This document shows, in pieces, positions 668-14,057 of a stretch of DNA of 64,000 bases. Every line of letters starts with the position of its first letter. The first letter of the stretch is position 1. Source of the stretch: Candidatus Poseidoniales archaeon (GTDB taxonomy: Archaea > Thermoplasmatota > Poseidoniia > Poseidoniales > Poseidoniaceae); assembly GCA_038150305.1 (NCBI GenBank), contig JAYOTG010000001.1:97286-161285 (forward strand), written 5' to 3'. The notes beneath the pieces were generated by a model. The model ran no database searches and had not been told where the DNA came from. It saw nothing but the letters and a program-made list of their open reading frames with translations. The position numbers and the translations under genes are program-made.

Positions 668-2221
668 TCACACCCAGTTAAGCCGTGTTGGACTGTACGG
701 GCCGGCGGATTGGTTGAGGCCGTCGAGGACCGTCACGCCGATCAGATCTGGTGAGAAGGCGATGAAGTTGAACACAAGGATGGCCAGGACGATCATCATG
801 CCAGAGTGCTTGAAGCCGCTCGTGATTCGACCTGTCGCCATCAGTCCTGCCATCGCACCGTTGCCCATCGCTTGCATGGTCACGCCGTAGTAGAAAATCG
901 TCAGGAAGAACAGCGGGTCGATGGCTCGAATCTGCATGTTTCCGATGTTCTGACCGCCCGAGTCGCCACCGTCGCCACCGCCGGCGTTGGAGTCCGCAAT
1001 CGCGGGAATGAACACCTTGGCCAGCACGACGATCACGCCGAGGAACACGCCGTACGACGTCCAAATGACGGCGATGTACGAGCCGATGGCCCGTTGACGT
1101 TCGGCTTCGAGGAACTTGATCTCACGGCTGTCGTTGGCGGCCGTGATGAGGATGTCCGAAATTTTTCCACCCGCGCGGTCGGCTTCTGAGATCAGTGAAA
1201 TCGCCCGCTTCACCAGCGGGGTGCCGACGCGCTCCGCGAAGATGTTGATGACGTCCCCGAACTTGACGCCCCAGGACAGCTGGCTGGACATCTTCCGGAC
1301 CTCGTCGTTCAAGGCGCCGTATTCGGAGGTCGCCAGCGTTTGAACGGCGACGGTCATCGACAAGCCACCCTTCCAGTATTCTGCAAGGTCGCGGAGGAAA
1401 TCAGGGAACTTGTCCTCCTTCTCGTTGCGCTTGAGGGCGACGCGCTCAGCATAGTACGAAGCTGGGAAGATGTAGAGGAAGAAGGTCAGACCGAAGAAGT
1501 TCAGGAAGATCATCGGTCGAAGTTGGGTGTCGCCCAAGGTGGGACCAAGCCAGAGGGACTTGTTGTTCATGTTGTCAGGAATGCCGTCGTAGTACTGGGC
1601 CTCAAAACGGAACTTGACGTTGGACAACACCTGATCTCGATCGTCCACCCAGAACCCGAATTCGTAGCGCTCCCCCGGCTCAAGGTCGTCCACATACAGG
1701 CTGCAATCGTCGCCCGGCTCGCCCGCAACGCCCTGGCTGTAGGCGATGGTCATCTTGTACTTGTCACGGATGGCGACCGTGTAAGGCGTTGGCTCAGCAG
1801 CGCTCAACGTGCAGGTCACCGTGACCGGTTGGGTGATGACGACGCCCTGGTCAACGAACGTGCGGTCGATGCCGGGCATGTCAAACGACGCACCAGCGCG
1901 CTCAACGTTTTCCCAACCCTCGTTCTCCTCCCAGACGACGACCTCGGGGTTGTCTTTGAGGATGGAGCAACTTTCGTTCATCGCATAGGTTGGTGTTGCA
2001 GGGCCGTTGAAGGCTTGGTCCCCGGTCATGGTCGAACACGCCAAGTTGGTGAACATGGGCTCGCCGTTGGCGGTCGGCAAGAAGCCGGAGTTGGTGATCC
2101 AAAACAGACCCGAGGCGGTGCCCAGCATGATCGAGAAAAAGAGGATGATGAGGAAGTTCCGTTGCGTGGGATCGTCCTTCGGAAGGTCGAGGTCCACGAC
2201 GATTTTCTTCTTCTTCGCCAT
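668..2221 (-). CDS. Type II secretion system F-family (TadC/FlaJ-like) membrane platform protein with extra N-terminal extracellular domain
   Basis: C-terminal half has the T2SSF pattern FPDFLRDLAE...G..YGAL..EV...GG.ISDIL followed by TM helices. Confidence 0.85.
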   Translation of the reverse strand: MAKKKKIVVDLDLPKDDPTQRNFLIILFFSIMLGTASGLFWITNSGFLPTANGEPMFTNLACSTMTGDQAFNGPATPTYAMNESCSILKDNPEVVVWEENEGWENVERAGASFDMPGIDRTFVDQGVVITQPVTVTCTLSAAEPTPYTVAIRDKYKMTIAYSQGVAGEPGDDCSLYVDDLEPGERYEFGFWVDDRDQVLSNVKFRFEAQYYDGIPDNMNNKSLWLGPTLGDTQLRPMIFLNFFGLTFFLYIFPASYYAERVALKRNEKEDKFPDFLRDLAEYWKGGLSMTVAVQTLATSEYGALNDEVRKMSSQLSWGVKFGDVINIFAERVGTPLVKRAISLISEADRAGGKISDILITAANDSREIKFLEAERQRAIGSYIAVIWTSYGVFLGVIVVLAKVFIPAIADSNAGGGDGGDSGGQNIGNMQIRAIDPLFFLTIFYYGVTMQAMGNGAMAGLMATGRITSGFKHSGMMIVLAILVFNFIAFSPDLIGVTVLDGLNQSAGPYSPTRLNWV

Positions 2222-11461: not shown

Positions 11462-11508
11462 GCGGCATCAGCGTCATAAGCACAAGCCAACACTGAGGGT
11501 TGAGGCAC

Positions 11509-12417
11509 ATGAGGACACTCCGCATACTCGTGGGGCTTCTGTTCCTCGGGGTGTTGGCCAGTTACCTCCTTTTGGCCGGAGAATTGGTCGAAGAGGCGCA
11601 ATGGGGCACCGTCGGTGCCCTCGGCGTCCTTGGCTTGGCGTGGGTCCGCCTTGGCGGCTCGCCGCGCCCGCAGGCCGTGGTTCAGCCCGCCAAAGCCGCG
11701 GGGGCCTCAGCCGCTCCAGAAGCCGTCTCGGAATCTGCATCGGACGAGGCCTCCGAAACACCGGCACCTGTTCGCGCTGAATCGCCGGCCACCATGGCGG
11801 AACGCAAGCGCATGAAGGTCGCGGCCGCGAAGGCCGCACAAGCTGAAGCCCTCGCCGCTCAGGAAGCCGAAGCGGAGGAGGCTCACGGCCCGGTCATCGA
11901 GGTGGAGGTGGAAGAAGCTCACGTCGCTCAGGAATTTGTGGTTGAGGTGACCGCCGATTCCGTTGAAGACGCCGATATCGCCGTGACCGTCGAGGAGCGC
12001 CGTGAGCGCCATGCGGCGGTTCGCGAGCGCATCGAAGCACGACGCAGAGGCCGCATGGCGGAAATCCGTGCCGCAACGGTGCGCATGTGGGAAGAAGCCG
12101 AAGCACGCGAGGACCTCGTGGCCCTGCTTCGCACGCCAAACCATGGCCTCCACGTCTACGACCTGCCGGAGCATCCAGAGCCAGGCCGACCCTACGGCGC
12201 GACCTTCGTTCGCCTGGACGAGGCCCGCGTGATCAAACTCCGTGTTCCGCTCGACGAAGGCTTCAGCAGCACGACGAACGAGCCGGAGCCGCTCCCCGAA
12301 CTGCCACCCCTCCCCGCTCCTGGTGAATTGCCGCCCCTCGGCGACCTTCCCCCGCTCCCAGATCCCATCGAAGCGCGTTCAGATGCCCTGGCCGCGCTCG
12401 CGCCCAGCGACGACTAA
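11509..12417 (+). CDS. Hypothetical membrane-anchored protein (2 TM, Ala/Glu-rich coiled region, Pro-rich tail)
   Basis: Long ORF with typical codon usage, two N-terminal hydrophobic helices and LPPL repeats at the C-terminus. Confidence 0.65.
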   Translation: MRTLRILVGLLFLGVLASYLLLAGELVEEAQWGTVGALGVLGLAWVRLGGSPRPQAVVQPAKAAGASAAPEAVSESASDEASETPAPVRAESPATMAERKRMKVAAAKAAQAEALAAQEAEAEEAHGPVIEVEVEEAHVAQEFVVEVTADSVEDADIAVTVEERRERHAAVRERIEARRRGRMAEIRAATVRMWEEAEAREDLVALLRTPNHGLHVYDLPEHPEPGRPYGATFVRLDEARVIKLRVPLDEGFSSTTNEPEPLPELPPLPAPGELPPLGDLPPLPDPIEARSDALAALAPSDD

Positions 12418-12524
12418 CTGTCGCCAGGAAAGCTTCTTTTTGTGAAGCGCTGAGGCTTGGCACTCACCTTGCTGCAGTCTGTCCATCCGCTCCGTCCACG
12501 TGCAAGCGTTGGGCGGCCAACAAG

Positions 12525-12557
12525 ACATGATTCAACATGAAAGCTACATGTTTAAAG
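12525..12557 (+). promoter_or_regulatory. Promoter with ACATG repeats and TATA box (TTTAAAG 12551-12557)
   Basis: ACATG at 12525, 12535 and 12546 (10-11 bp spacing, including the inverted pair ACATG-N7-CATGT) directly abuts TTTAAAG. Confidence 0.6.
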
Positions 12558-12579
12558 CCTCTCGCGGCTAGCCTCTACC

Positions 12580-12597
12580 ATGGCACAGCCCATCTGA
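12580..12597 (+). CDS. Putative leaderless uORF (MAQPI*)
   Basis: ATG GCA CAG CCC ATC TGA starts 29 nt after the TATA box, the same spacing as other leaderless starts in this window. Confidence 0.45.
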   Translation: MAQPI

Positions 12598-12599
12598 CC

Positions 12600-12657
12600 C
12601 TCCGATGCCGGATCGAGCCTGCTGGCCACGAGCCAGCTTTGGCCACCGGCATAGGAG
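12600..12657 (+). promoter_or_regulatory. Structured 5' leader hairpin sequestering the Shine-Dalgarno site
   Basis: CTCC-G-ATGCCGG (12600-12611) pairs with CCGGCAT-A-GGAG (12646-12657), and there is an inner stem GCTGGC/GCCAGC. Confidence 0.6.
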
Positions 12658-12668
12658 AAGAACAGATT

Positions 12669-13064
12669 ATGGGAAGCAGAATTGGAAAGAAGGAACGGCG
12701 CGCGCGCCGTTCACGACGCGACGACATGGCCCGTGGTGCCAAGGAACCACAGCACGAGATGACCTACTCCGAGCGGGTCAAAGCCTCCAGCAAAGGCGGA
12801 TCCCTCGGGAAGCGCATGAACGCCAACAAGCGCCGGCACCGGACGCCGACCGTGTCCCATGCCCCGCGCCCCTGCTGCGCGAACGACGCGGCTCGAAAGG
12901 AGGCTACGGCACGGATGCTTGCGGACCTCCGCGACGCCCGCCTCGATCGGAGCTGGGTCAACGGTGCATGGAAGATGCAAGCGCCAACGTGGTTCCTTCG
13001 GAAGCACAAGCGGCACCTCCATCACTTGCCCGACGACGTTCGGGCGAAACTGAACCTGCGCTGA
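12669..13064 (+). CDS. Small highly basic hypothetical protein (131 aa)
   Basis: AGGAGA SD-like site upstream of ATG 12669. The product is Arg/Lys-rich and no family was recognised. Confidence 0.7.
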   Translation: MGSRIGKKERRARRSRRDDMARGAKEPQHEMTYSERVKASSKGGSLGKRMNANKRRHRTPTVSHAPRPCCANDAARKEATARMLADLRDARLDRSWVNGAWKMQAPTWFLRKHKRHLHHLPDDVRAKLNLR

Positions 13065-13101
13065 GGCGCGCGTTCAGGTCGGGACTTGGCGTCCCGTGGC
13101 C

Positions 13102-13133
13102 GCGACCTGAGGTCCTGCGGGGCCTCAGGTCGC
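13102..13133. terminator. Strong GC hairpin between convergent genes
   Basis: GCGACCTGAGGTCC-TGCG-GGGCCTCAGGTCGC forms a 14-bp stem with one G-U pair. Confidence 0.55.
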
Positions 13134-13134
13134 C

Positions 13135-13971
13135 TCATTCATGCGTCCACTTGGGCGTTTCACGGCTCAAGAAAGCCTCGACACCGATGGCGGTGTCGGC
13201 GCTGTCGAACAGGGCTGAGAAGGCGTCCAGCTCGACAATCAACCCGTCGCTCAGCGATGTTTCCATGCTGGCGCGCATCGTGGCTTTGGCCACCTTCATC
13301 GTCGCCGCGGACTTGCTGCCGATGGTGCGGGCGAGCGCCAGCGTGCGCTCCATGACGTCCTCAGCAGGCACCACGTGGTTCACCAATCCGATGCGGTGGG
13401 CTTCCCTTGCGTCGATCATCTCGCCGGTAAACACCAGTTCCATGGCTCGACCAAGACCCACCAAGCGGGCCAAACGCTGGGTCCCCCCACCGCCGGGCAT
13501 GAGACCGAGGTTGATTTCGGGGGTGCCGAAGCTCGAACGGTCGCTGGCGACGCGAAGGTCACAGGCGACCGCCACCTCGCATCCACCGCCAAGGGCGAAG
13601 CCGTCGATCATGGCAATGGTCGGCTTGCTGATGCCCCAGATGGCTTCCCACCCGTTGTCGGCAAAGATGGGGTAAATCTCCTCGCCGCTCTTGCCTGCAA
13701 ACTCCGAGATGTCGGCCCCGGCCACGAAGGCGTTTGGTTTGGGACGACGACCTTCCGGTGCAGGGCCCGGTGCGGCTCCGGTGAAAATGACGCAGCGAAC
13801 GTGGCCCTGCGTTTCAACCTCTTTCGCGTAGGCCTTGATGGCGCTCATCACGTCCTGATTGAGGGCGTTCAGTTTGTCTGGCCGGTTGATGGTGACCAGA
13901 GCGATGACGCCTTCATCGTCGGAATCTGGAGCGACGGGGAGATGTTCGACAAGCAGCACGTCTTCGGCCAT
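13135..13971 (-). CDS. Enoyl-CoA hydratase/isomerase (crotonase)
   Basis: NRP.KLNAL, AFVAGADI, G.ALGGGCE and PE..LG.MPG.GGTQRL motifs. Confidence 0.93.
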   Translation of the reverse strand: MAEDVLLVEHLPVAPDSDDEGVIALVTINRPDKLNALNQDVMSAIKAYAKEVETQGHVRCVIFTGAAPGPAPEGRRPKPNAFVAGADISEFAGKSGEEIYPIFADNGWEAIWGISKPTIAMIDGFALGGGCEVAVACDLRVASDRSSFGTPEINLGLMPGGGGTQRLARLVGLGRAMELVFTGEMIDAREAHRIGLVNHVVPAEDVMERTLALARTIGSKSAATMKVAKATMRASMETSLSDGLIVELDAFSALFDSADTAIGVEAFLSRETPKWTHE

Positions 13972-14057
13972 GCTGCCCCCACGCACCGCCCCCTCAAGAG
14001 CGCACCGACGGCGCCAAGCACGCCGAACGTTCAAGGCGTTCACCTGAAGGCAAGGGC

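Follow-up and report, generated by a model that had tools for sequence, protein, structure and literature searches.

A window of 64,000 nucleotides (nt) from the genome of a Candidatus Poseidoniales archaeon (assembly GCA_038150305.1, contig JAYOTG010000001.1; positions below are those of the window) carries a gene for a highly basic orphan protein whose leader combines two elements, a hairpin that pairs the Shine-Dalgarno (SD) sequence of the gene and a five-codon upstream open reading frame (uORF) that ends just before this hairpin begins. Seven or more genera of uncultured marine Group II archaea keep the arrangement at this one gene, although the sequences that form it are unrelated and the uORF is leaderless in some genera and SD-led in others. 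Leader open reading frames (ORFs) that unmask a hidden ribosome-binding site (RBS) are textbook regulation in bacteria. We lean towards the view that this archaeal leader acts by translational coupling through RNA unfolding, translation of the mini-ORF unmasking the SD of the main ORF.

Anatomy and predicted fold of the leader

The uORF, the SD-masking hairpin and the basic ORF reported in the initial annotation are all found where it had placed them (Table 1). The main ORF does encode 131 amino acids (aa), and only its implied start, 12670, needed correction, the ATG being at 12669. The first T of the TTTAAA box (12551) lies 29 nt from the uORF ATG (12580), and the uORF stop ends 2 nt short of the anti-SD arm CUCC. 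To the previously described fold we add an outer helix: in the minimum free energy (MFE) structure the CCCAU(CUG) stretch of the uORF is the partner of AUGGG at the main start.

Table 1. Features of the leader and gene, in window coordinates.
Feature	Position	Strand	Basis
In-frame 132-nt extension (175-aa form), judged non-coding	12537-12668	+	codon-position differences
TATA-like box TTTAAA	12551-12556	+	sequence
Leaderless mini-uORF ATG GCA CAG CCC ATC TGA (MAQPI, stop)	12580-12597	+	sequence, TATA spacing
P1 outer helix, 5' strand CCCAU (pairs main start AUGGG, 12669-12673)	12589-12593	+	MFE, RNAalifold
58-nt hairpin (loop CACGA, 12627-31)	12600-12657	+	folding
P2 anti-SD/SD helix, CUCC/GGAG	12600-03 / 12654-57	+	MFE
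P3 helix, AUGCCGG/CCGGCAU	12605-11 / 12646-52	+	MFE
P4 helix	12617-19 / 12641-43	+	MFE
P5 helix, GCUGGC/GCCAGC	12621-26 / 12632-37	+	MFE
Shine-Dalgarno GGAG of main ORF, 11 nt 5' of ATG	12654-12657	+	sequence
Main ORF, 131 aa	12669-13064	+	coding signature, profile matches

The hairpin by itself has a computed free energy of -33.4 kcal/mol. For the segment 12575-12690 the MFE is -45.3 kcal/mol, compared with -31.45 +/- 3.79 kcal/mol for 200 dinucleotide shuffles (z -3.65), of which one was as good. In the free leader RNA the computed probability that GGAG is unpaired does not exceed 0.01. When the uORF and 6 nt past its stop, a stretch chosen from the size of the ribosome footprint, are kept single-stranded, this probability rises to at least 0.94, and the inner hairpin is still folded. 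The single locus is not convincing alone, because 78 of the 3323 SD-preceded ATGs (ORFs of at least 80 aa) in this GC-rich genome pass loose versions of these structural criteria, the scan being unspecific.

The promoter region points to a leaderless uORF. All 18 distinct leaders from the genus of the window have a TATA-like box 29 nt (15 leaders) or 30 nt (3 leaders) 5' of the uORF start, with TTTATA, TTCATA, TTCAAA, TTAAAA and TTTAAG as variants at the equivalent position, and the spacer between box and start shows only 52% identity across them. Genome-wide, the distance from a TATA-like hexamer to the start has its mode at 29 nt (18 cases at -29, 7 at -30 and 4 at -28), so that the uORF start occupies the usual position of a leaderless start. 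The earlier statement that most neighbouring genes are leaderless held in part: 82 ORFs of at least 60 aa begin 28-30 nt past a TATA-like hexamer in the genome, but SD-like tetramers show a peak as well, at -11/-12, and the four nearest genes are ambiguous. We predict that transcription starts at or beside 12580. One RNA-library contig matches 12581-12998 with 96% identity, which places leader and main ORF on one RNA-derived contig; its end beside 12580 is a weak hint of the transcription start, as contigs cannot give 5' ends and DNA carry-over is possible. None of the contigs of four RNA runs, for which contigs only were used, covers 12385-12569, which proves nothing about the transcript start.

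Three ACATG direct repeats (12525-29, 12535-39 and 12546-50, plus strand), spaced 10-11 nt, abut the TATA box. They are kept in the genus alignment, and the triple is unique in the 1.92-Mb genome; judged by its sequence, it is a candidate operator or transcription-factor site (12525-12550).

Mini-ORFs located 28-30 nt past a TATA-like hexamer also occur elsewhere in the same genome (G000, at C6:82152, C2:6566 and C29:7025). Two of these consist of a start codon followed directly by a stop (ATG TAG) and lie 49 nt upstream of a long ORF with an SD; one of the two long ORFs resembles a DEAD-box helicase, and its leader is structured. The remaining mini-ORF encodes MRLRHQFR. The organism may make wider use of leaderless mini-uORFs.

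Conservation of the uORF and of the predicted masking structure

The gene was located with a hidden Markov model in 110 loci from species-representative genomes. An SD-led start could be assigned in 107 of them, L044, L104 and L134 being left out as truncated or masked, and in nearly all of the 107 leaders GGAG, GAGG, GGGGUGA or AGGUG precedes the assigned ATG by about 5-11 nt. The 5' arm of each leader was defined as the best duplex between the SD region and the upstream sequence, and a short uORF as an ATG or GTG frame of at most six codons whose stop falls -6 to +4 nt from this arm, with 100 dinucleotide shuffles of each leader as the null. A short uORF ending at the anti-SD arm is present in 80 of the 107 leaders, compared with 13.3 expected. 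A stricter test, admitting only ATG and stops at -1 to +3 nt, gives 47 leaders and an expectation of 4.5. When leaders are clustered at 75% identity, the feature is shared by half or more of the members in 24 of 33 clusters. It is this comparison that lifts the single locus above chance. The stop-to-arm distance peaks at 0-2 nt (43 of the 80 uORFs) and the modal length is three codons (38 of 80). From the stop to the main ATG the spacing is 71 nt at the window locus, with a median of 80 nt and a range of 62-144 nt over the 80 leaders.

What is kept is the start, the frame and the stop of the uORF; the sense codons vary. More than 25 different, unrelated peptides are encoded, including MAQPI, MKHP, MNE, MND, MNK, MTY, MIV, MMN, MYQ/MYR, MQ, MK, MLTD, MLKN, MAQAL, MFEEL, MLEAF and others, and the residue encoded last also varies widely (Q 15, K 9, I 8, N 8 and others). 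In one group, all 15 aligned leaders have exactly two variable codons between ATG and stop. The MAQPI uORF of the main clade of the genus is invariant save for GCA/GCG and one ATC>GTC change, and that of the L008 clade reads GTG AAA/AAG CAC CCA TGA (MKHP, stop).

Many of these uORFs have initiation signals of their own. An SD-like site of -4.5 kcal or stronger precedes 40 of the 80, and a TATA-like hexamer at -33 to -26 is found for 14 more, giving 54 of 80 with a signal by threshold; inspection by eye adds about nine with TTTAAG at about -30. The leaderless mode, with a five-codon uORF about 29-30 nt past a TATA box, is found in two genera, the sister genus using GTG as the start codon. In most other genera the uORF is SD-led, preceded by its own GGUGA or GGAG. 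Several of the clusters scored as negative have SD-led uORFs of 10-15 codons that run through the arm, for example MPPDTQPTCE and MPLQWTNSGPES, each followed by a stop, and other negative clusters are due to a misplaced arm call.

Two observations on the uORF peptides are recorded here for their own sake. In five leaders from three clusters (L040, L129, L131, L137 and L138) codons for Pro-Pro-Asp immediately precede or overlap the anti-SD arm, the uORFs being MTHPPDLD, MPPDPSPLGI, MPPDTHPPLLN, MPPDTQPTCE and MPPDTQPTCSE, and L114 and L124 share a uORF of 15-16 codons beginning MES(T/S)KH(L/M)N.

Support from structure is mixed. The leaders are more stable than their shuffles, with a median MFE z of -2.76 and 70% of values below -2. 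The anti-SD duplex is better than 95% of shuffles in 45 of 107 leaders and in 13 of 33 clusters, with p 0.005 at the window locus. Arms fit their own partners better than those of other clusters (-14.2 vs -10.7 kcal/mol); outside the SD core, own arms give -6.6 and swapped arms -4.4 kcal/mol, and 43 of the 107 leaders beat 95% of swaps.

Covariation of the stem, which the initial annotation had named among its checks, is weak for the clade to which the window belongs and clear for the sister genus. The SD helix emerges from RNAalifold in the sister-genus alignment, 92.6% of cells being paired (85.9% when shuffled), and double changes occur at 8 pairs, compared with 1.8 expected and with none of 500 shuffles reaching 8; slid controls are 31-56% paired. 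Within the window's clade P1, CCCAU/AUGGG, is paired in 15 of 15 sequences and is uninformative for covariation, since it is invariant apart from a single A-U to G-U change. P5 shows a compensatory C-G to U-A change in L005. For g12-type leaders MAFFT placed the arms out of register, and RNAalifold consequently did not recover the outer helix.

A covariance model built on the window's clade (R1) gave eight strong matches, one per genome and all at this gene; it found no match in another genus and no second copy in a genome, and none of its four weak hits (E 0.03-0.99) is at the family gene. The comparison with Rfam that had been suggested earlier gave no family for the leader: cmscan of 11500-14000 with E up to 10 returned no match on it, and returned two chance-level matches elsewhere (11812-11879 and 13359-13423, both on the minus strand).

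The coding frame and its basic product

The coding signature that was to be expected of a genuine 131-aa ORF is present. Among close relatives, differences at the three codon positions number 62/60/179 in the 131-aa part, and 70/54/63 in the in-frame extension upstream (12537-12668). This bears on an altogether different reading of the locus, in which the true product is a 175-aa form starting at ATG 12537 and the hairpin is ordinary coding sequence. The frame is indeed open from 12537, and public gene calls, in at least 20 database entries, mostly give 175 aa from this ATG, with others of 163-166 and 151 aa. However, the extension lacks the third-position excess seen in the 131-aa part; one relative (L004) has a 5-nt deletion just 5' of the ATG and an open frame of only 133 aa; and ATG 12537 itself lies inside the ACATG repeats, upstream of the TATA box. 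What is more, distant genera have stops in the extension and their ORFs begin at the SD-led ATG, and 130-aa calls exist among the public entries too (P0015 and P0019). We therefore reject the 175-aa form, to which we can attach hardly any credence. The extended public forms (entries P0001-P0014), which run 20-44 residues into promoter and leader, are a systematic mis-annotation arising from an open GC-rich frame. With this recurrent error corrected, the product is defined as an orphan, family-specific and highly basic protein.

The 131-aa protein contains 12 Lys, 23 Arg, 7 His, 8 Asp and 5 Glu, for a net charge of +22. Its N-terminal half is basic and is followed by a C-terminal domain (residues ~66-131) with conserved C69, C70 and H119. 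Across the family the N-terminal part is basic, with 'K..HNGK.R' in most genera, an invariant Cys lies within a CC or CxC motif, a His is nearly invariant, and a block W...G.W...P..F..K.R.H..H recurs. AlphaFold (AF2) predicts a C-terminal domain made of a helix, a beta-hairpin and three helices, with a predicted local distance difference test score of ~95 for residues 70-130.

The distribution of the family is narrow. A profile of nine diverse members matched only 42 representatives among 1.84 billion proteins, and over 401 genomes of the order Poseidoniales it found the gene in 117 of the 199 that belong to the family of the window and in none of the 201 from the other two families. The public name of one member points to Poseidoniaceae, and a metagenome scan gave only 14 close loci.

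The database checks proposed at the outset assigned the protein to no family or fold in Pfam, NCBIfam, or PDB sequence and fold searches. Pfam gave nothing above cut-off with the protein of the window, nor with 28 representatives of its family, NCBIfam matched 0 of 34, and the best E value of a PDB profile search with the family was 1.1. Foldseek with the predicted fold gave best E values of 1.4 (PDB) and 0.22 (BFVD), VIA-align in its wide mode compared two models with 48,161 chains for a best Z of 3.4-3.5, and the ESM Atlas contained no usable match for the protein. The profile searches of Pfam, NCBIfam and PDB revealed no link to translation-factor families. The N-terminal 'HHNGK.R' of distant members suggested a likeness to eukaryotic eL29, for which profile searches of Pfam and PDB gave no support. 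It is charge alone that suggests nucleic-acid binding.

The neighbours of the gene vary between genera, which suggests no operon and offers no functional hint. It is convergent with an enoyl-CoA hydratase gene in two genera, and elsewhere lies near genes for PTH2, SelO, a class II tRNA synthetase, an AAA ATPase or MscS. At L039 (G018, 1800-2165, minus strand) the gene is convergent with that of the PTH2 peptidyl-tRNA hydrolase, a single case that forms no pattern. In the window, the upstream 305-aa ORF (11500-12417) is Ala/Glu-rich, with a hydrophobic N-terminus and a Pro-rich C-terminus and no Pfam match; its C-terminal end is kept beside the 131-aa gene across the genus. The region from the end of the 131-aa ORF to the enoyl-CoA hydratase gene convergent with it contains, at 13081-13131, the inverted repeats GGGAC/GTCCC and GACCTGAGG/CCTCAGGTC, which may be a shared terminator region.

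Proposed translational coupling and alternative readings

The leader as predicted suggests how coupling could operate. The transcript would open at or beside the A of ATG 12580 with the five-codon leaderless mini-ORF. A ribosome translating this mini-ORF and sitting on its stop codon would keep the 5' strands single-stranded, the SD would be freed at the foot of the still-folded inner hairpin, and a ribosome could then start on the main ORF. The hairpin may additionally bring the uORF stop and the main start together in space. In this scheme the uORF is presumed to be translated and its translation to activate the main ORF. We favour coupling by RNA unfolding because the masking of the 5' strands frees the SD in the computation and because the spacing from stop to start (71 nt at this locus, 80 nt at the median) is too long for linear reinitiation. 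Peptide-specific arrest of the ermC type is argued against by the peptides, which are arbitrary and not conserved across clades. Translational control this tight would suggest that the dosage of the protein matters, and the leaders form a natural variant series for testing how archaea couple a stop codon to a distant, structured start.

Several observations weigh against this interpretation. The anti-SD duplex is not above shuffles in 20 of the 33 clusters, and the SD core is fully paired upstream in the MFE structure of 55 of the 107 leaders as against 29% of shuffles, a modest excess that makes this measure a poor discriminator; the clade of L109, L112, L114 and L124 has no clear SD-masking helix. 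In the window's clade double changes are seen at only 2 pairs, a number reached by 274 of 500 shuffles, the two key helices, CUCC/GGAG and CCCAU/AUGGG, do not vary at all, and P3 contains uncompensated changes (at one pair, for example, 9 of 15 cells are unpaired), which are partly due to misalignment. The anti-SD used for scoring is presumably that of the organism, the 16S 3' end, like the rRNA as a whole, being absent from the assembly. At the thresholds used, 26 of the 80 short uORFs have neither initiation signal, and the GTG starts at the presumed 5' end of some uORFs may initiate poorly. Finally, the arm positions behind the uORF statistic are set by the best-duplex search, which misplaced a few of them, and, the genomes being related, leader counts overstate the number of independent events.

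The strong charge of the product (net +22), which has no other assigned function, raises the alternative that the protein attaches to the inner hairpin in the leader of its own mRNA and locks the fold in which the SD is masked, with the uORF as a secondary or opposing 'on' input; many ribosomal proteins regulate their own leaders by binding. Model R1, which matches once per genome and only at this gene, would be in keeping with this, as would the conserved loop types, which could form a protein-binding site alongside the uORF device: a C-N-N-G-A pentaloop in the window's genus (CACGA, CUUGA, CUAGA, CAUGA), GNRA tetraloops on a GGCC stem in the sister genus and, by eye, a GCGGRNNCG-CUYGA-CGNNYCUGC stem with compensatory NN changes in other genera. 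Yet the leader interior varies so strongly in length and fold from genus to genus that no single binding site is evident, and autoregulation does not account for the 80 of 107 leaders in which the uORF stop lies against the arm. We consider it unlikely, though worth keeping in mind. A riboswitch or an RNA thermometer that masks the SD, with the uORF incidental, would fit a leader that is structured, conserved and SD-masking, but the enrichment of uORFs would again have no explanation, the interior that is not conserved between genera offers no common pocket, and the Rfam search gave no match on the leader at E up to 10. For a thermometer, structures of -33 to -45 kcal/mol would be far too stable at sea-surface temperatures. 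We hold this reading to be very improbable.

The initial annotation had interpreted the leader as a sensor of ribosome state. Taken strictly, this would mean that dwell at the uORF stop or at Pro-Pro-Asp sets the level of a ribosome-associated stress factor, the dwell time reporting the capacity for termination, recycling or peptidyl transfer. The geometry does put a terminating ribosome exactly over the anti-SD. Pro-Pro-Asp, a strong arrest motif when EF-P/IF5A is lacking, is encoded just before or in the arm in the five leaders from three clusters listed above, and the uORF of the L008 clade ends in Pro-stop (MKHP). However, known arrest motifs are absent from most uORFs (MNE, MNK, MYR, MQ etc.), many different residues stand next to the stop, the profile searches tie the protein to none of the translation-factor families, and constitutive coupling accounts for the same anatomy, so that a sensor seems to us quite improbable. 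The same doubt applies to a family-wide gauge of ribosome dwell on the stop of a uORF of 2-5 codons or, in some clades, on Pro-Pro-Asp, in which slow termination, recycling or peptidyl transfer (the capacity of aRF1, ABCE1 or aIF5A) would switch on a Poseidoniaceae-specific basic protein acting on ribosomes or RNA under such stress, the hairpin bridging stop and start so that the ribosome could be handed over.

Coupling by RNA unfolding thus remains our preferred reading, and it can be set beside systems already described. The device resembles both the unfolding coupling of bacteria and phages and leader-ORF attenuation, but does not have the specific arrest peptide of the latter. In ermC/ermB/cat attenuation a short leader ORF precedes an SD-sequestering stem-loop, which is opened by a ribosome on the leader. 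The archaeal leaders likewise have a leader ORF with its own initiation signals on the same transcript and a stem that pairs the SD. They differ in that more than 25 unrelated mini-peptides take the place of a conserved arrest peptide, in that the relevant ribosome position is the stop codon itself, and in that there is no link to an antibiotic, the product not being a resistance enzyme.

Short uORFs in 5' leaders, SD-led or leaderless, modulate the downstream gene in bacteria as well. According to a uRBS study in Sinorhizobium meliloti, bacterial uORFs act by translational coupling or RBS occlusion (PMC13285730), and leaderless short ORFs of mycobacteria are described in another report as attenuators that sense cysteine via Cys-rich peptides (bioRxiv 10.1101/834739). 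Here, in an archaeal host, the uORFs encode arbitrary peptides, and what stays constant is the distance from stop to hairpin. For archaea, the passages on termination-reinitiation in Haloferax volcanii describe a coupling that fades beyond 30-40 nt (PMC12548453; the topic is also treated in PMC10666635). Archaeal ribosomes can pass from a stop to a nearby start, and the present hairpin could bring the two together in space, but the spacing of 62-144 nt (median 80) lies beyond that range. Candidate uORFs are mentioned only as a possibility in the pertinent section of archaeal Ribo-seq work (PMC11456600), and full-text literature searches, with subscription journals outside their coverage, returned no described archaeal case of SD unmasking by a leader ORF.

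The closest parallel is coupling by RNA unfolding in bacteria and phages, for which the MS2 coat-lysis and f1 gene VII-IX pairs are given as examples in the part of PMC12548453 concerned with it. In those systems translation of the upstream ORF opens the RNA structure in which the downstream RBS is hidden. There, as here, the stop of that ORF is located at or inside the masking structure, and the spacing is too long for simple reinitiation. In the present case, predicted from sequence, the upstream partner is a dedicated leader ORF of 2-5 codons instead of a gene, the host is an archaeon, and in two genera the uORF is leaderless and stands at the very 5' end of the mRNA.

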